Below, piece after piece: positions 2,388 through 61,585 of a stretch of DNA of 64,000 nt. Position numbers and translations under genes: made by a program. The notes under the pieces are model-generated. The model was not told the origin of the DNA. It searched no databases and saw nothing but the letters and a program-made list of their open reading frames with translations. The DNA comes from Escherichia coli (GTDB lineage: Bacteria > Pseudomonadota > Gammaproteobacteria > Enterobacterales > Enterobacteriaceae). The stretch lies in NCBI RefSeq assembly GCF_003334315.1, contig NZ_QOWR01000023.1; one strand, 5' to 3'. Numbering within the stretch: position 1 is the first letter of the stretch; each line of letters starts with the position of its first letter.

Positions 2388-3779
2388 TTACTGTTTTTCT
2401 GGTGGGAAAATCAGATTCAGCACGATGGCAGTAATACCGCCCGCGGCGATCCCGGAGGAGAGCAGGTTTTTCAGCCATTCAGGGGCAAACTGCAAAATCA
2501 GCGGCTGCTGAGACACGCCCAGACCAACCGCCAGCGACAGCGCGATAATCAGAATCGCCCGACGGTTCAGCGGCTCACGAGAAACGATACGCACACCGGA
2601 GGCGGCGATGGTGCCAAACATTACAAGCGTTGCGCCGCCCAGAACCGGTTCTGGAATGTGTTGTACAAAACCGCTCACTGCCGGGAACAGACCCAGCACG
2701 ATCAACATCAGCGCGACGACAAAACCGACATAGCGGCTGGCAACACCAGTCAACTGGATCACTCCGTTGTTTTGCCCGAAGCAGGAGTTCGGGAAGGTGT
2801 TAAACACCGCCGAAACAAACGAGTTCAGGCCGTTTGCCAGCACGCCGCCTTTCAGGCGTTTCATGTACAGCGGACCGGACACTGGCTGTTCGGAAACGTC
2901 AGAGGTCGCCGTGATATCGCCAATGGTTTCCAGCGAAGTGATCATAAAGACCAGCATCAGCGGCAGCAGCAGACTCCATTCAATGCCAAGACCGTAATAG
3001 AGCGGCGTTGGCACCATAATCAGTTCTTGCGTCATAGGTTCGTTGCTTTCTGGCAACATGCCCATAAACCACGCCAGCGCATATCCGGCCGCCATCGCAA
3101 TTACCAGTGAGGCCACGCGTAAGTAAGGGTTACGTTGACGGTTAAGCAGGATAATTAAGGCTAAGACCACGCCTGCCAGCAGCAGATTTTTCGGTGCGCC
3201 GAAGGTGTTATCGCTCATGGCTGCGTAACCGCCGCCAATGGACGTTAACCCAACCTGAATTAGCGACAGGCCGATAATCATCACCACAACGCCAGAAACC
3301 AGCGGCGTAATAATGCGGCGCGCCAGATGCAGAACGCGGGAGATCACCATCTCGGTGCAACTTGCCAGCATCAACGTGCCGAACAAAGCCGCCATCATGG
3401 TAGGAACATCAGCACCACCGGTTTTCAGCGCGGTACCGCCCATAATCAGCGGGGCAACAAAGTTGAAGCTGGTGCCCTGAATAGACAACAGCCCGGAGCC
3501 AACCGGACCCCAGGCCTTAATTTGAATAATCGATGCCACACCGGAGGCAAACAGCGACATACTAATAATGTGTTGCGTGTCTTGTGCCGGTAAACCCAGC
3601 GCCTGGCAGATTAATAGCGCTGGCGTGATCACCGCAACGAACATCGCCAGCAGATGCTGACAGGCGGCAAACAGGGTTTGAGGAAGCGGCGGACGATCTT
3701 CAAGACGGTAAATCAGTTCGCTGTTTTGAGTCTGCGCAACCGGTTGCGCATTTTCTGACTCGAGGGTGGAAACAGACAT
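2388..3779 (-). CDS. xanP: xanthine:H+ symporter (NCS2 family)
   Basis: Polytopic membrane ORF; start trimmed to [12 protein letters not shown] gives 463 aa. Confidence 0.9.
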
Positions 3780-4058
3780 CGAAAACAATCCCGTGGTAGC
3801 AAAGCGGGCATTTTAGCTGACCGAAAGAGAAAAGCAAACGTTTGCCACATCCTCATCTAAATATTTAAATGAGATAAATGCACTTTTTTATATAACTTTT
3901 GGTATTTTTCTGCTTAAAATCCATGCCATTTGTTCATTAACAGCTGAGAATTTGACCCAGGAAAGCATAACTCGATACCCGTCATAGTTCATGAAGTTGC
4001 CACTGCGCGATGAAGTATGACGAGTATGAAAGAGTGATGCGGATACAAAGGAGTAACT

Positions 4059-5264
4059 ATGTTTCATCTCGATACTTTAGCAACGCTTGTTGCCGCAACG
4101 CTGACGTTGCTGCTCGGGCGTAAGTTGGTCCATTCCGTCTCCTTTTTGAAGAAATACACCATACCGGAACCTGTTGCGGGTGGTTTGTTGGTGGCGCTGG
4201 CGCTACTAGTACTGAAAAAAAGCATGGGCTGGGAAGTCAACTTTGATATGTCCCTGCGCGATCCGTTAATGCTGGCTTTCTTCGCCACCATTGGCCTGAA
4301 CGCCAACATTGCCAGTTTGCGTGCCGGTGGGCGTGTGGTTGGCATCTTCTTGATTGTGGTTGTTGGTCTGTTGGTGATGCAAAATGCCATTGGCATTGGT
4401 ATGGCTAGCTTGTTAGGGCTTGATCCGCTGATGGGGCTGTTGGCCGGTTCTATTACGCTTTCCGGCGGTCACGGTACGGGCGCTGCGTGGAGTAAATTGT
4501 TCATTGAACGTTATGGCTTCACCAATGCGACGGAAGTGGCGATGGCCTGTGCAACGTTCGGTCTGGTGCTGGGCGGCTTGATTGGCGGTCCGGTGGCGCG
4601 CTATCTGGTGAAACACTCCACCACGCCGAACGGTATTCCGGATGACCAGGAAGTCCCGACGGCGTTTGAAAAGCCGGATGTGGGACGCATGATCACCTCG
4701 TTGGTGCTGATTGAAACTATCGCGCTGATTGCTATCTGCCTGACGGTGGGGAAAATTGTTGCGCAACTTTTGGCTGGCACTGCTTTTGAACTGCCGACCT
4801 TCGTCTGTGTACTGTTTGTTGGCGTGATTCTGAGCAACGGTCTGTCAATAATGGGCTTTTACCGCGTCTTTGAGCGTGCGGTATCCGTGCTGGGTAACGT
4901 AAGCTTGTCGTTGTTCCTGGCGATGGCGTTGATGGGGCTGAAACTGTGGGAGCTGGCTTCGCTGGCGCTGCCGATGCTGGCGATTCTGGTGGTACAGACC
5001 ATCTTCATGGCGTTGTATGCCATCTTCGTTACCTGGCGCATGATGGGCAAAAACTACGATGCGGCAGTGCTGGCTGCGGGTCACTGTGGTTTTGGCCTCG
5101 GTGCAACGCCAACGGCAATCGCCAACATGCAGGCGATCACTGAACGCTTTGGCCCGTCGCACATGGCGTTTTTGGTGGTGCCGATGGTCGGTGCGTTCTT
5201 TATCGATATCGTCAATGCGCTGGTAATTAAGTTGTATTTGATGTTGCCGATTTTTGCCGGTTAA
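4059..5264 (+). CDS. gltS: sodium/glutamate symporter
   Basis: 401-aa hydrophobic ORF, MFHLDTLATLVAATLTLLLGRK N-terminus. Confidence 0.9.
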   Translation: MFHLDTLATLVAATLTLLLGRKLVHSVSFLKKYTIPEPVAGGLLVALALLVLKKSMGWEVNFDMSLRDPLMLAFFATIGLNANIASLRAGGRVVGIFLIVVVGLLVMQNAIGIGMASLLGLDPLMGLLAGSITLSGGHGTGAAWSKLFIERYGFTNATEVAMACATFGLVLGGLIGGPVARYLVKHSTTPNGIPDDQEVPTAFEKPDVGRMITSLVLIETIALIAICLTVGKIVAQLLAGTAFELPTFVCVLFVGVILSNGLSIMGFYRVFERAVSVLGNVSLSLFLAMALMGLKLWELASLALPMLAILVVQTIFMALYAIFVTWRMMGKNYDAAVLAAGHCGFGLGATPTAIANMQAITERFGPSHMAFLVVPMVGAFFIDIVNALVIKLYLMLPIFAG

Positions 5265-5307
5265 CCGATGAAGCGGCGGTAGAAGTGCCGCCGCAACAAA
5301 GACAAAT

Positions 5308-5339
5308 GCCTGATACGCTTCGCTTATCAAGCCTGCGTA
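5308..5339. repeat. degenerate REP-like palindromic element downstream of gltS
   Basis: gcctgatacgcttcgcttatcaagcctgcgta resembles the REP consensus GCCTGATGCG...CTTATCAGGCCTAC. Confidence 0.35.
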
Positions 5340-5432
5340 TTGATTCATAATTTATTGAATTTGTAGGGTGATGAATCGCATCCGGCAGGAAGGTAGGGTA
5401 ACCTGAAATGGCGGTCTTCTCACTGCCGCCTT

Positions 5433-7514
5433 TTACGCATTCGAGTAACGTTCCGTCTCCGGCATCCAGCGTTCTATCAGGGCTTTTGCCTGTTGTGGGT
5501 AACGTTCGTGAATATGGCGTGCCAGGCGCTGAACTTCCGGGATCATCGCCTGATCGCGCAGTAAATCCGCCACTTTAAATTCAGCATTACCCGTCTGACG
5601 CGTGCCTAACAATTCGCCAGGGCCGCGAATCTCCAGATCTTTTTGCGCAATCACAAAACCGTCGTTACTGTCGCGCAGCACTTGCAGGCGAATTTGCGCC
5701 GTTTTAGAAAGCGGCGTTTTGTAGAGCAGCACGCAGTGAGAAGCCACCGCGCCACGACCTACGCGCCCGCGCAGCTGGTGTAACTGCGCCAGACCCAGAC
5801 GCTCCGGGTTTTCGATAATCATCAGACTGGCGTTAGGCACATCAACGCCGACTTCAATAACGGTTGTGGCAACCAGCAGGTGTAGCTCACCTTGTTTAAA
5901 CGACGCCATCACCGCCTGTTTCTCGGCAGGTTTCATCCGCCCGTGTACCAGGCCAACGTTCAACTCTGGTAGCGCCAGTTTCAACTCTTCCCAGGTAGCT
6001 TCCGCCGCCTGCGCTTCCAGCAATTCCGACTCTTCAATCAACGTACAAACCCAGTATGCCTGACGACCTTCAGTTATGCAGGCGTGGTGCACGCGGTCAA
6101 TGATGTCGGTACGGCGGGTATCAGGAATAGCGACCGTAGTCACTGGCGTGCGGCCTGGCGGCAGCTCATCTATCACCGAGGTATCGAGATCGGCATACGC
6201 AGTCATTGCCAGCGTGCGGGGGATCGGCGTGGCGGTCATGATCAACTGATGCGGATGGAAGCCCTGCTGCTGGCCTTTCTCCCACAATGCCAGACGCTGA
6301 TGCACGCCAAAACGATGCTGTTCGTCGATAATCACCAGCGCCAGGCCGTTAAACTGCACCTGTTCCTGGAAGATGGCGTGTGTACCGACAATCATCTGCA
6401 CCTGACCGCTGGCGATGGCTTCCTGCTGTGCCAGCCGTGCTTTACCTTTCTGCTTACCGGCGAGCCAGCCCACTTCGATACCGAGCGGTGCAAACCAGTT
6501 GCGGAAGTTATTGGCGTGCTGCTCGGCGAGTAATTCGGTTGGTGCCATCAATGCTACCTGTTTGCCGTGGGCAATCGCACGCAACGCGGCGAGGGCGGCG
6601 ACCAGCGTTTTACCGGAACCTACATCGCCCTGCACCAGACGCATCATCGGCACATCCAGCGCCATATCGCGCTCGATCTCCGCCACTACGCGTGCCTGTG
6701 CGCCCGTTGGCTTGAACGGTAAGGCGGCGAGGAGTTTATTTTTCAGCGTGTCATTGGCGCTCAGCGGCTGGGCATGAAAACGCTGTGCTCCGGCACGTAA
6801 GGCTAACATGCTGAGGTTGTGCGCCAGCAGTTCTTCCAGAATCAGACGACGTTGCGCCGGATGCTGCCCGGTTTCCAGATCGCTAAGCTGTAGCGTCGGT
6901 GGCGGGCGGTGCAAAGTGCGCAACGCTTCCGGTAGCGTCATCATTCCTTGTGACAGTTCCGGCGGCAGGAGTTCTTCAATGGCGCAGGTGTCGAGCAGAT
7001 CCAGCGCCTGGTCGGTTAATTTACGCAGCGTGGCCTGCTTTACGCCTTCCGTTGTTGGATAAACCGGCGTGAGCGTTTCCTGTAATTCTGGCGTGCTGAG
7101 ATCGCCCTGCACGCGGTATTCCGGGTGGATCATCTCCGCACCATATTTACCGCGCTTTGCTTCGCCATAAGCCAGTACACGGCGGCCCGCCGCCAGGCTA
7201 TTTTTCATTGCCGCGCTGAAATTGAAAAAGCGCATGGTGAGGATGCCGGAACCGTCGCTGATCTGGCAGGTCATCATCCGCCGACCGCCGAAGGAGATAT
7301 TGCAGTTCAGCACTTCGCCTTCCACCGTGGCATAAACGCCCGGCAGTAGTTCTCCGATGGGGTAGAGATGGGTGCGATCTTCGTAGCGCAGGGGAAGGTG
7401 TAAGAGTAGATCCTGCACGGTATGCAGGTTGATTTTCGCCAGTTTGTTACTAAGTGCTGCGCCAACGCCCGTTAGGGAACTGAGTGGGACAGCATCTAAC
7501 AGGCGACCTTTCAT
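5433..7514 (-). CDS. recG: ATP-dependent DNA helicase RecG
   Basis: ORF track 5433..7547; start trimmed to MKGRLLDAVPLSSLTGVG (693 aa); helicase motifs GSGKT, DEQHRFG. Confidence 0.95.
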   Translation of the reverse strand: MKGRLLDAVPLSSLTGVGAALSNKLAKINLHTVQDLLLHLPLRYEDRTHLYPIGELLPGVYATVEGEVLNCNISFGGRRMMTCQISDGSGILTMRFFNFSAAMKNSLAAGRRVLAYGEAKRGKYGAEMIHPEYRVQGDLSTPELQETLTPVYPTTEGVKQATLRKLTDQALDLLDTCAIEELLPPELSQGMMTLPEALRTLHRPPPTLQLSDLETGQHPAQRRLILEELLAHNLSMLALRAGAQRFHAQPLSANDTLKNKLLAALPFKPTGAQARVVAEIERDMALDVPMMRLVQGDVGSGKTLVAALAALRAIAHGKQVALMAPTELLAEQHANNFRNWFAPLGIEVGWLAGKQKGKARLAQQEAIASGQVQMIVGTHAIFQEQVQFNGLALVIIDEQHRFGVHQRLALWEKGQQQGFHPHQLIMTATPIPRTLAMTAYADLDTSVIDELPPGRTPVTTVAIPDTRRTDIIDRVHHACITEGRQAYWVCTLIEESELLEAQAAEATWEELKLALPELNVGLVHGRMKPAEKQAVMASFKQGELHLLVATTVIEVGVDVPNASLMIIENPERLGLAQLHQLRGRVGRGAVASHCVLLYKTPLSKTAQIRLQVLRDSNDGFVIAQKDLEIRGPGELLGTRQTGNAEFKVADLLRDQAMIPEVQRLARHIHERYPQQAKALIERWMPETERYSNA

Positions 7515-7519
7515 GGCAC

Positions 7520-8209
7520 TTACCCTGCAGCCTGCATAGTAGCCCACCAGTCGGCATCAGCTTCGATCTCGCCTTGCTGATTGACGTGGGGATAAGGCAG
7601 GCCTTTGCGTTTTGCGACTTTCGCCAGCACCGGATAGCCGCCTTCAAACAACAGGCGTTGTTGCTCTGCTTCCGGCAACATGCTGTTTTCACGCAGGTAC
7701 ATGCCTGCATTTTGCCGCTGACGCTGGGCTTCGTAAAGAATGAGGGCTGAGGCAACGGAAACATTCAGCGACTGCACCATGCCGATCATCGGAATGATGA
7801 TGTCCTGATCCGCCAGGGCCAATGCTTCCTGCGTGATGCCCGTTTTCTCCTGTCCCATCAAAATGCAGGTCGGGCGAGTGTAATCAATTTCGCGGAAATC
7901 GACAGCGTTATCAGAAAGATGGGTTGCCAGAATCTGCATGCCCTGGCCTTTGAGATGAGCGACGGCATCGCCAATGGTGCGGTGTGTTTTCACCTGTACC
8001 CAGCTGTTACTACCCGCCGCTGCCGAAGCCATGGTGCGCATGCGGCTACCAGGCCAGACGGCGTGAACTTCATGTACGCCAACGGCATCTGCGGTACGAA
8101 TAATCGCAGAAACGTTATGAGGTTTGTGGACCTGCTCCATGCAGACGGTCAGATCAGGCTGCCGCCTGGCGAGCATTTCGCAGATGCGTGCATAACGTGT
8201 TGGGTTCAT
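7520..8209 (-). CDS. trmH: tRNA (Gm18) 2'-O-methyltransferase
   Basis: 229-aa SpoU-family ORF MNPTRYARICEMLARRQPDL; between spoT and recG. Confidence 0.95.
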   Translation of the reverse strand: MNPTRYARICEMLARRQPDLTVCMEQVHKPHNVSAIIRTADAVGVHEVHAVWPGSRMRTMASAAAGSNSWVQVKTHRTIGDAVAHLKGQGMQILATHLSDNAVDFREIDYTRPTCILMGQEKTGITQEALALADQDIIIPMIGMVQSLNVSVASALILYEAQRQRQNAGMYLRENSMLPEAEQQRLLFEGGYPVLAKVAKRKGLPYPHVNQQGEIEADADWWATMQAAG

Positions 8210-58372: not shown

Positions 58373-59509
58373 ATGGATCTATTGATTGTTTTAACTTACG
58401 TGGCGCTGGCGTGGGCGGTCTTTAAAATCTTCCGCATTCCGGTAAATCAGTGGACGCTGGCGACGGCGGCGCTGGGAGGCGTGTTTCTGGTGAGTGGTTT
58501 GATTTTGTTGATGAACTACAACCACCCTTACACTTTTACCGCGCAAAAGGCAGTGATAGCGATCCCTATCACGCCACAGGTGACGGGAATTGTTACTGAA
58601 GTCACTGACAAGAATAATCAGCTTATTCAAAAGGGCGAGGTGCTTTTTAAGCTCGACCCGGTTCGTTACCAGGCGCGAGTTGACAGACTTCAGGCTGACC
58701 TGATGACGGCGACGCATAATATAAAGACGCTGCGTGCGCAGCTCACTGAAGCGCAGGCCAACACCACCCAGGTTTCAGCGGAGCGCGACCGTCTGTTTAA
58801 AAATTATCAACGTTACTTGAAAGGCAGCCAGGCGGCGGTGAATCCGTTCTCGGAACGTGACATCGACGATGCGCGGCAAAATTTCCTCGCGCAGGATGCG
58901 CTGGTGAAAGGCTCGGTGGCGGAGCAGGCGCAGATCCAGAGCCAGCTCGACAGTATGGTTAACGGCGAGCAATCGCAGATTGTGAGCTTAAGAGCGCAAC
59001 TTACTGAAGCAAAATATAACCTTGAGCAGACTGTCATTCGCGCGCCGAGCAATGGCTACGTTACTCAGGTACTGATCCGCCCAGGTACATACGCAGCTGC
59101 CTTGCCGCTGCGTCCGGTGATGGTCTTCATCCCCGAGCAAAAACGGCAAATTGTCGCCCAATTTCGGCAAAACTCGCTGTTACGTCTGAAACCCGGCGAT
59201 GATGCGGAAGTGGTGTTTAACGCGCTACCTGGGCAGGTGTTTCACGGCAAACTGACTAGTATTTTACCTGTCGTGCCAGGCGGTTCTTATCAGGCGCAGG
59301 GGGTATTGCAATCATTAACGGTCGTGCCCGGCACGGACGGTGTGCTGGGAACCATTGAACTGGACCCTAACGATGATATCGATGCCTTACCCGACGGCAT
59401 CTACGCCCAGGTGGCGGTTTACTCCGACCATTTCAGCCATGTTTCGGTGATGCGGAAAGTGCTGCTAAGAATGACCAGCTGGATGCATTATCTTTATTTG
59501 GATCATTGA
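58373..59509 (+). CDS. yibH: HlyD-family membrane-fusion / periplasmic adaptor protein
   Basis: 378-aa ORF with N-terminal TM anchor, coiled-coil centre and C-terminal beta domain. Confidence 0.88.
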
Positions 59510-59968
59510 GGGGGAGGGGGGAGATTATGGAACTTTGCTCCTTGTAAGGACTAATTATTTTTGCATATTACTTCATTAGCTGCGATGATTTTTCTTTAAT
59601 ATTCATTATGTTAATAAGTTCTGGATGAGTGTGCTCTCATTGGATTTTTTATCCGTCTTGTTCTGCCGCAGGATGAGACTATACATCGTCGAGATCGCAA
59701 TGATGATATGAGTTGTTCCTCCTGCGACGGCTCTAATCAAAAAAGAGCAGGAGTGCTTTTCCATCTATTGCGATGATGGCTTTATTATCTGAAGGATGAC
59801 AGTCACATTTAAAAAATATTTAATCTATAGATCACAATGTAGGGTCATGGAATATATGTATACAACTATTTTCTTCTTCACTTTTAATTATCGTATTCAT
59901 TATAAAACTAAGTTAAAAAAACTCCTGGAGAGTGAGTTATTAATATATTTTTAAATAAAATTAAGTTA

Positions 59969-60406
59969 TCATTCATCGATGCACTTTATAGAATCATCAA
60001 TGGCCATAATAGTACTATTAACTCTCAATTTTATATTTTTATCATCACTACAAATATTAACTGAATTTATATCAATGATTTTTTTATTCTTATCTTTTAT
60101 TTTATTTACTGTTTCAATGCAATCAGCGGCAAGTTGGAGTGGATTTAGATTTTTCAGATATGGTCTTATGATCTTTCCCTTACTTAATAAATAGCATGTA
60201 TAGGATTCGGAAAGTCCAGCATCTATTTTGTACCTCATTATATTAGATAAGGATGTGAGAAATTCCTTGTTATCATTCGCAGCCATATATGCCAGTCCGA
60301 GTTCAGCCTCTGCGGCCTTACAGGCAAAATAGCTTAGTGAACACGCTTTTCGTCCCTCTTTAGTACTGGCTGATATTAGTGCCCATAATATTGCTTTGTC
60401 TGCCAA
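59969..60406 (-). CDS. hypothetical protein (145 aa), candidate Rhs-associated immunity protein
   Basis: AT-rich ORF with no family I recognise; lies in the Rhs orphan-module region. Confidence 0.4.
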   Translation of the reverse strand: MADKAILWALISASTKEGRKACSLSYFACKAAEAELGLAYMAANDNKEFLTSLSNIMRYKIDAGLSESYTCYLLSKGKIIRPYLKNLNPLQLAADCIETVNKIKDKNKKIIDINSVNICSDDKNIKLRVNSTIMAIDDSIKCIDE

Positions 60407-60494
60407 ATCTAACTCTCTCTGAAATTGTCTTGCAGTAACTGCACTCGCAGAAATAGAGAAAAAAATACAATTGTTAATAACCTTGCCATATTTT

Positions 60495-60788
60495 TTAGTC
60501 CGTAACTGTTAATGTGCTATCTGGCTCTGAAAATATTAACTCATTTAATTTTTGCATGTCATTAGATAAACCAGTTATACAACCCTCGGAACAGAATCGA
60601 GGTCCTAAAGACGGACCAAAAGCGTTTAAACAACTATGTATTGAAAATCCATTGCGATTATAAGTTCCTGTATTAACTGACGGTACTAATCGTATGCCGT
60701 CAGGTTTTCTATTGCTTGCTCCCGGGTCATTAACATTCCAACTCCATAGGCCTTGAGGTATTGGCCATCTATTTATAAATGTGTACAA
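60495..60788 (-). CDS. hypothetical protein (97 aa), possible toxin-tip fragment
   Basis: ORF with apparent TTG start, immediately downstream of a degenerate Rhs core-end remnant. Confidence 0.3.
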   Translation of the reverse strand: MYTFINRWPIPQGLWSWNVNDPGASNRKPDGIRLVPSVNTGTYNRNGFSIHSCLNAFGPSLGPRFCSEGCITGLSNDMQKLNELIFSEPDSTLTVTD

Positions 60789-60861
60789 CGGGGATTATTT
60801 TTACATTGCATATTATTACCAGAAGCGACTGGAATACTAAGCACATCATAAAAATTATCAT

Positions 60862-61100
60862 CACATGGTATATCTGAAACACACGAAAGCATACCTAAAG
60901 TTATGCTGTATAAACAGGTGGCTAATCCCAAGGGGATCGATTCCAGAAATCGGGTTCAACGGATACTGATAAAAATTCCACCTACCTTCCAGCCCAATCG
61001 GAGCCTGAGTGTTATACCGCCCCTGCTGCGGTTAATGTTACCGATAATAGTTATAGTACAGCCCTGATTCATCATCATACTACTGCTGCGGCAGTCTGAT
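60862..61100 (-). pseudogene. degenerate third copy of the Rhs core 3'-end segment
   Basis: Nucleotide similarity to the core-end segments at 62100-62260 and 63855-64000 (ggttcaacggatactgataaaaattcca...agcccaatcgg...ataccgcccctgc); hand translation gives ...[24 protein letters not shown]...DPLG with in-frame stops on both sides. Confidence 0.4.
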
Positions 61101-61112
61101 GAACTATTGCTT

Positions 61113-61574
61113 TTACGGATTCTCCTTATTCTTCCTTCTATCCATTCGCTTTAGCTTTTTGAGCTCTTGAAGTTTGCTCTTTGCATCAATATTACCGTTA
61201 TTTACAGCGAATTTCATCCAATAAATAGCTCTATTCAAATTATAATATTCTGATAATGTTGGATTTGTATCTGATAAAAAGACCCCATAATTAAACTGCG
61301 CTGTAACATTCCCCTGAGATGCTGATCTTTCCAAGAATCGCAATTGTTTATCAATATTATTTTTAGTAAAGCAGTAATATTGATATAGTCGAAATGATGC
61401 CTCTGAATCACCATGTTGTGATTTATACTTCAGTTTCATCAGCTTTTCTTCACTTAAATCATAGGTCATTGCTGTAGATCCCATCACACTTTCGTTTTCT
61501 TTTATTTTCACATCAGCACCATGCAATTGACCAATAAGAGAAAAATAAAAAAATAGTAACAAGCATGCTTTCAT
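61113..61574 (-). CDS. yibG: Sel1/TPR-like repeat protein with signal peptide; probable immunity protein for the adjacent orphan Rhs toxin tip
   Basis: 153-aa ORF MKACLLLFFYFSLIGQLHG...; immediately downstream of the orphan rhs fragment. Confidence 0.7.
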   Translation of the reverse strand: MKACLLLFFYFSLIGQLHGADVKIKENESVMGSTAMTYDLSEEKLMKLKYKSQHGDSEASFRLYQYYCFTKNNIDKQLRFLERSASQGNVTAQFNYGVFLSDTNPTLSEYYNLNRAIYWMKFAVNNGNIDAKSKLQELKKLKRMDRRKNKENP

Positions 61575-61585
61575 ACATCTACAAC

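Follow-up and report, generated by a model that had tools for sequence, protein, structure and literature searches.

Tlde1 proteins, which belong to the DUF2778 family, are L,D-carboxypeptidases/transpeptidases that act in the periplasm (10.1101/2020.02.18.954545; PMC9638812), and the catalytic motif of Tlde1a has the form H-x(14-17)-(S/T)-H-G-C (PMC9638812). The Tlde1 paper noted Rhs-DUF2778 fusions in Shigella and cited Imm57 (10.1101/2020.02.18.954545), and a comparative-genomics study by Zhang et al. in 2012 predicted that a Tox-LD-peptidase domain is associated with both RHS repeats and Imm57 (PMC3482391). A model for the displacement of Rhs tips was given by Jackson et al. in 2009 (PMC2935791), and orphan Rhs toxin/immunity pairs were reported by Poole et al. 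in 2011 (PMC3150448) and by Koskiniemi et al. in 2014 (PMC3967940). We analyzed a stretch of 64,000 nucleotides (nt) of Escherichia coli DNA (contig NZ_QOWR01000023.1 of RefSeq assembly GCF_003334315.1), called the window here, in which two small open reading frames (ORFs) lie at the distal end of the rhsA array. These two ORFs are very probably the decayed "dissociated tip" of that array, a Tlde1-type toxin gene and an Imm57 immunity gene that are both frameshifted.

An earlier note on this DNA had described two AT-rich ORFs that follow a degenerate Rhs core-end remnant, and this description was borne out. The ORF list places both on the minus strand with a TTG start, one of 145 amino acids (aa) at 59969..60406 and one of 97 aa at 60495..60788, and the GC content over 59750-60950 is 0.24 to 0.38. 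The core-end remnant, the third in the array, lies 5' of them at 60927..61079 on the minus strand, where three-frame translation showed two in-frame stops and a PxxxxDPxGL-type motif at the end. The corresponding stretch of K-12 W3110 is labeled by the Prokaryotic Genome Annotation Pipeline (PGAP) as [quoted passage not shown] The stretches without a stop codon extend over 179 codons (the Imm57 body) and 99 codons (the toxin part). When the same 900 nt (GC content, 0.335) were shuffled by a first-order Markov model, a stretch of at least 145 codons occurred in 0.3% of the trials and a second stretch of at least 97 codons occurred in 0.25% (P of ~0.003 each). Because stop-free lengths of this size are rare in the shuffles, the two ORFs are remnants of real coding sequence rather than chance. 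Their limits and both TTG "starts" are frameshift artifacts, each start being the first TTG past a frameshift-generated stop. The biological units are a toxin-domain remnant at 60495-60922 and an Imm57 pseudogene at 59969-60489.

The 145-aa ORF encodes the body of an Imm57 protein but not the signal peptide. Its residues 1 to 99 cover positions 1 to 100 of the 100 positions of the Pfam Imm57 model (PF15596; E value, 2.7e-48), and it is about 90% identical to intact 173-aa E. coli Imm57 proteins. The features given for Imm57 by comparative genomics (D, SE, and C in a mostly alpha protein; PMC3482391) are present in the ORF as …IDAGLSESYTCY… and …KIDAGLSESYTCY…, and PGAP labels the K-12 W3110 stretch "Imm57 family immunity protein, frameshifted." We mapped the lesions of both genes by DNA alignment to intact alleles (E300010 for the toxin and KGu016 plus E300010 for Imm57) together with translations. 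The original start of the immunity gene occupies 60409..60489 on the minus strand, where an ATG at 60489, 5 nt past the toxin stop, opens the translation MARLLTIV…; in the intact alleles, this stretch encodes a predicted signal peptide. A 1-nt deletion at ~60466, after codon 7-8 (GTGCTTTT -> GTA-TTTT), puts this ATG out of frame with the body, and the window translation from it ends after 26 codons. The window gene is therefore not an intact gene with an export signal, since the deletion cuts the ATG and MARLLTIV… from the body. The body frame itself is open 5' to ~60505, with no ATG, GTG, or TTG before 60406. We also considered a programmed -1 frameshift at GTA TTT TTT TCT and rejected it as a designed feature; the heptamer departs from the canonical X XXY YYZ pattern, and the T7 run is shared with an in-frame allele.

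Intact 173-aa Imm57 proteins, with the N terminus MARLLTIVLFFSISANAVTVNQFQRELDLADKAILW…, are encoded in E. coli KGu016, Ec73552, and FDAARGOS_497. Every Imm57 homologue with a complete N terminus has a hydrophobic, signal-like N-terminal segment, the homologues share conserved cysteines, and D90, G105, C124, and C147 are invariant. The signal-like N termini and conserved cysteines suggest that Imm57 is a periplasmic protein. An AlphaFold2 model of the intact protein was all-helical (predicted local distance difference test score, 87.1), and a Foldseek search of this model against the PDB gave no significant match (best E value, 0.3; template modeling score, <0.3).

The 97-aa ORF at 60495..60788 is the C-terminal two-thirds of a Tlde1/DUF2778 toxin domain, in which the catalytic His (FSIHSC) and CSEGC are retained. 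The N-terminal third of the domain lies at 60776..60922 on the minus strand and ends in …CKNNPRCTHL, as determined from the alignment with E300010, the translations, and the family alignment. By alignment with E300010, the whole ~145-aa domain is present but broken, directly after the DPLG core end. An extra C within the DPLG codons (~60930-60935) is a +1 lesion that leaves the N-terminal third out of the core frame; toxin residues 1 to 49 are read in another frame, in a 52-aa ORF at 60773-60931. A 1-nt deletion near 60790 is a -1 lesion that brings the 97-aa part back into the core frame. In addition, a 9-nt in-frame deletion in the GGTAATAAT repeat leaves GNN missing from the conserved SGNNGxG motif, and the window toxin carries a G56W change at a glycine that is 98% conserved in the family alignment. 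From a product of the 97-aa ORF, the three N-terminal beta-strands of the fold and four of its conserved cysteines would be missing. No single ORF of the window encodes the complete domain, and the window toxin is a pseudogene of the Tlde1/DUF2778 family. We infer from these sequences that neither ORF would give a working product and that the 97-aa and 145-aa frames are the open remainder between lesions. As a separate observation, the GGTAATAAT tandem unit (60830-60850, minus strand) varies in copy number, with SGNNGNN in intact alleles and SGNN in the window, which amounts to an in-frame indel polymorphism in the toxin's best-conserved N-terminal motif.

The earlier note had found no family for either ORF; in fact, the 145-aa ORF is Imm57 (PF15596) and the 97-aa ORF is Tlde1/DUF2778, and its suggestion of a vestigial toxin fragment (the 97-aa ORF) plus an immunity gene (the 145-aa ORF) proved right. 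By itself, the 97-aa fragment matched Pfam weakly (Tlde1_dom, E value of 0.0083; YkuD, E value of 0.038). The intact E. coli toxin allele matched Tlde1_dom with an E value of 1e-7, and all nine relatives searched matched it at 0.001 or better (best, 9.8e-10). PGAP names the 135-aa ORF of E300010 "tlde1 domain-containing protein." When the two ORFs and the two intact proteins were scanned against NCBIfam, no relevant family was found. Across 54 family sequences, C3, C14, G35, L82, H99, C101, C114, S115, G117, and C118 are invariant. The toxin motif, H-x15-S-E-G-C, is an L,D-transpeptidase-type catalytic motif in which the window and the family consensus have Glu where Tlde1a has His. Structure prediction gave an L,D-transpeptidase fold that resembles Tlde1a.

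Intact and attached forms of the same cassette exist in other strains. At the yibF-yibH locus of Ec73552 (2825-7529), there is one full-length 1,392-aa Rhs protein with this tip, followed by an intact 173-aa Imm57 gene, and there are no orphan tips. The single attached tip of Ec73552 agrees with the C-terminal displacement model, by which the most distal tip is the oldest; the arrangement is either the ancestral state or a re-attachment through recombination. FDAARGOS_497 carries an intact orphan toxin/Imm57 pair.

Beyond E. coli, we scanned one genome per species, which gave 15 loci. Full-length Rhs proteins of 1,500 to 1,800 aa with this tip were found in six other genomes, those of a Nitrosomonas-related metagenome-assembled genome (MAG), Lysobacter, Stenotrophomonas (two loci), Pseudoxanthomonas, a Lysobacteraceae MAG, and Luteimonas. 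An Imm57 homologue was the next gene 3' in 10 of the 13 informative loci from other genera, with 1 marginal case and 2 loci without one, and 11 of the 12 aligned sequences passed the Pfam Imm57 model. The pair is tied to one tip both in E. coli and in other genera, which answers the check suggested in the earlier note, whether it covaries with a particular Rhs tip. A search of 1.84 billion cluster representatives found 395 clusters that match the toxin domain. The domain was C-terminal in 93 of the 94 representatives with a full domain, and a DPxGL-like motif stood just 5' of it in 80 of these 94. Two loci with the same tip have no Imm57 neighbor. In a Rhodospirillales MAG (L018), the 3' neighbor is a 196-aa signal-peptide protein without similarity to Imm57, and in Luteimonas gilva (L017), a dinB-like gene lies 3' of the tip; a second immunity family may exist as a partner for this toxin tip. 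Two Amycolatopsis orientalis contigs (L015 and L016; 330 and 258 nt) encode the last 63 toxin residues at 89% identity to E. coli, and these are most likely E. coli DNA contamination of the assemblies.

By analogy with described systems, the intact element would be a PAAR-headed Rhs protein, delivered by a type VI secretion system (T6SS), with a Tlde1-type domain of ~145 aa after the DPxGL cleavage motif. This disulfide-rich domain would have an L,D-transpeptidase fold with His99 and Cys118 of H-x15-S-E-G-C as catalytic residues. In the periplasm of a target cell, the toxin may trim or exchange D-Ala4 of peptidoglycan tetrapeptide stems, which would block cross-linking and weaken the wall. The all-helical Imm57 protein with its conserved cysteines would be exported by its Sec signal and would bind and neutralize the toxin in the periplasm of the producer. 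Of the Rhs C-terminal toxin/immunity cassettes in the array, the one in the window is the most distal and very probably the oldest, displaced 3' as newer tips recombined onto the main rhs gene.

We compared the cassette with the closest described systems. It resembles the Tlde1/DUF2778 (PF10908) T6SS effectors, such as Salmonella Typhimurium Tlde1a (PDB 7UMA), in the Pfam match of the intact allele and the nine relatives, in the His-Cys spacing (H-x15-S-x-G-C), in a cysteine-rich composition consistent with a periplasmic disulfide-bonded toxin, and in an adjacent immunity gene with a signal peptide. However, the domain here is the C-terminal tip of an Rhs protein, whereas Tlde1a is a stand-alone cargo of the Hcp type. 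Imm57 takes the place of DUF2195/Tldi1 as immunity partner, the motif reads S-E-G-C rather than (S/T)-H-G-C, identity to Tlde1a is only 19%, and the window domain is a pseudogene. The architecture is the same as that of the pair of Zhang et al. (PMC3482391), with RHS repeats, an LD-peptidase toxin with H, S, and C, and an Imm57 neighbor in beta- and gammaproteobacteria; that pair is a computational prediction, and the window copy is frameshifted. As with orphan Rhs tips, a short core-end fragment is followed by an AT-rich tip and an immunity gene, 3' of an rhs gene of full length and in the same orientation, and another strain carries this tip on a full-length rhs gene. In the window, the core-end fragment with its DPxGL motif precedes the cassette, is co-oriented with it, and lies 3' of the full-length rhs gene, whose position was taken from synteny with K-12 W3110. 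Unlike the Salmonella orphan, which is intact and can be activated by recombination, the window tip has multiple inactivating lesions in both genes.

We determined how common the broken and intact alleles are in 5,426 complete E. coli genomes, using a 1.2-kb query that spans the cassette (59900-61100). The query had some match in 3,700 genomes, and 3,335 genomes were at least 99% identical to the window over its length. Strains such as ETEC1717 and CAVP773 were 100% identical to the window over the query, and the window differs from K-12. The window-type Imm57 deletion was present in 3,215 genomes (exact 61-mer), the +1 toxin lesion in 3,218 (exact 63-mer), and the -1 toxin lesion in 2,923 (exact 74-mer). 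In-frame Imm57 5' ends were found in 177 genomes for the KGu016 type and in 138 for the E300010 type, and toxin DNA of the intact type (at least 99% identical to E300010) was found in 139, almost always as an orphan on a truncated core. Other lesions were strain specific. An A7 run in the Imm57 body (60079-60085, minus strand) is A8 in K-12 W3110, giving a second frameshift and a 111-aa product (…KDKNKKNH); LH50-c has a stop codon within the toxin; and E300010 has a 5-nt deletion in Imm57. These extra lesions show that decay of the cassette is continuing.

The window holds the E. coli rhsA region, running in reverse orientation, with lldP, yibL, mtlR-D-A, yibI, and yibH followed by the Rhs array, as judged from ORF content and synteny with K-12 W3110. 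By the same synteny, the array order is rhsA-yibA-remnant-yibG-remnant-cassette, and the end of the window falls inside the rhsA tip. In the array's second orphan unit, an open frame of 314 aa at 61586-62530 (minus strand) comprises a core-end fragment and a tip, and the K-12 copy of this fragment is flagged by PGAP with an internal stop. The Sel1-repeat protein YibG follows it at 61113-61574 (minus strand). Between the Imm57 remnant and yibH lies a fragment of an ISAs1-family (H-repeat) transposase gene at 59612..59804 (minus strand), broken by a stop and a frameshift. A tblastn search with the FDAARGOS_497 ISAs1 transposase aligned it to residues 96 to 159 of 378 at 56 to 64% identity (E value, 2e-12). 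This fragment is the distal boundary of the Rhs element. In FDAARGOS_497, an intact ISAs1 copy instead sits directly 5' of the orphan tlde1 gene. For the K-12 names, we infer that yibV is the Imm57 remnant and yibU the ISAs1 fragment.

Several points weigh against reading the two ORFs as a decayed Rhs tip. PDB sequence searches with single sequences and with profiles of 9 and 54 sequences found no relative, and the proposed link to Tlde1a is drawn from the Pfam matches and a predicted structure. The toxin motif is S-E-G-C, in contrast to the (S/T)-H-G-C of the characterized Tlde1a, and we found no experimental test of any Imm57 protein or of this Rhs-tip subfamily in the literature searched. 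The apparent loss of function was deduced from the nucleotide changes, and in the window no stop interrupts 179 codons of the Imm57 body frame. Finally, the ratio of nonsynonymous to synonymous substitution rates (dN/dS) between the window and intact alleles was 0.26 to 0.32 for the Imm57 body and 0.38 for the C-terminal part of the toxin. Since these values are below 1, much of the divergence built up under purifying selection, and the lesions are perhaps fairly recent. The low dN/dS therefore places most of the divergence before inactivation or on the intact lineage.

The synonymous divergence (dS) between window-type and intact-type sequences (L004, L020, and L021) was ~0.15 to 0.17 for Imm57 and ~0.29 for the toxin part. 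Typical divergence of E. coli core genes is well below these values. The high synonymous divergence suggests old allelic lineages or import by recombination.

The open Imm57 frame and its low dN/dS also bear on the idea, raised in the earlier note for two immunity genes, of retention for protection against kin, which is unlikely given the loss of the Imm57 start codon and signal peptide to the 1-nt deletion. It would take a small amount of exported protein, made despite the deletion, for the Imm57 remnant to give some immunity against kin with an intact Tlde1-tipped Rhs protein, and we consider this improbable. The protein could come from an in-frame ATT at 60478, a start that would leave in place the signal peptide's hydrophobic core and AVTA cleavage region, or from RNA polymerase or ribosome slippage on the T7 run (~60459-60465). 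The body frame is open back to ~60505 and includes …NNCIFFSISASAVTARQ…, and at least one annotation uses such a start, since a public 169-aa "Imm57 family immunity protein" entry (P0031) begins with MNNCIFFSISASAV…. However, initiation at ATT is very weak, and the N terminus made from it would be without the positively charged n-region of the intact MARLL…. The T7 run also occurs in the in-frame E300010-type allele and is not specific to the frameshifted one. The dN/dS of 0.26 to 0.32 against intact alleles would fit residual function, but the second frameshift in K-12 W3110, which cuts the body to 111 aa, and the lesions of other strains argue against constraint. The threat does exist in the species, with ~139 genomes carrying the intact-type toxin and at least one of them carrying it on a full-length Rhs protein. 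Yet a promoter and terminator scan of 59450-61650 found promoter-like sites at no more than the level of the shuffles (8 found versus 10.2 expected) and no terminator. That the majority E. coli Imm57 allele is not dead, and that low-level initiation at ATT 60478 or slippage on T7 protects most strains from the minority with Tlde1-tipped Rhs proteins, seems to us slightly less probable still; if true, it would make the allele a "leaky pseudogene" maintained as cheap immunity.

We give very little credence to the view that the two ORFs are independent functional small proteins, like the K-12 "y-genes," or two immunity genes for kin protection, the latter being an alternative of the earlier note that does not hold for the 97-aa ORF, as this belongs to a toxin domain. 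Both frames do exceed chance length, but both starts are merely the first TTG past a frameshift-generated stop, and the 97-aa ORF plainly comes from the catalytic part of a toxin domain rather than from an immunity protein, and it has lost the three N-terminal beta-strands and the four conserved cysteines. The near identity of 3,335 genomes (at least 99% over the 1.2-kb query) reflects recent common ancestry rather than constraint, and there are extra strain-specific lesions. A promoter list, the one relevant paper found in literature searches on yibV, yibU, yibW, and yibS, places an RpoD-binding site in the K-12 "yibV > yibU" interval (PMC3946193). The exact TTAACT-N15-GATAAT quoted there is absent from the window, and the N18 version that is present, TTAACT…GATAAT at 59916-59887, sits 3' of the Imm57 stop and not 5' of either ORF. 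It is likewise highly improbable that the cassette is a silent but usable reserve, in which recombination of the core-end remnant with the main rhs core would re-attach the tip and arm the cell. The same tip does occur on a full-length Rhs protein at this locus in Ec73552, a displacement model has been described (PMC2935791), and orphan activation through recombination is documented in Salmonella (PMC3967940). However, the window toxin has two frameshifts, the motif deletion, and G56W, its Imm57 gene is frameshifted, and its core remnant has two stops. Because of these lesions, re-attachment would give neither an active toxin nor protection, and such a role would be limited to the ~140 genomes with intact-type alleles. 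We therefore retain the decayed Rhs tip as the explanation for the two ORFs; the cassette is an already known kind of element, ordinary at the end of an E. coli Rhs array, and most likely nonfunctional.

The association of Tox-LD-peptidase, Imm57, and RHS repeats was already known, as were the RefSeq labels for the Imm57 pseudogene and, in other strains, for the tlde1 ORF. Beyond this, we pieced together the disrupted toxin of the common E. coli allele, counted how often that allele occurs among complete genomes, and identified strains with the intact attached form. The result is mainly annotation housekeeping, in that two "hypothetical" ORFs that close the rhsA array, in the yibV region of K-12, are now identified. 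No concept is changed, as orphan Rhs tips that decay 3' of the active gene are expected. The analysis shows the distal tip of the rhsA array to be a Tlde1-type peptidoglycan toxin with an Imm57 partner, and Ec73552 and FDAARGOS_497, which carry intact pairs, could serve for the first experimental test of Imm57 and of the Rhs-tip Tlde1 subfamily.
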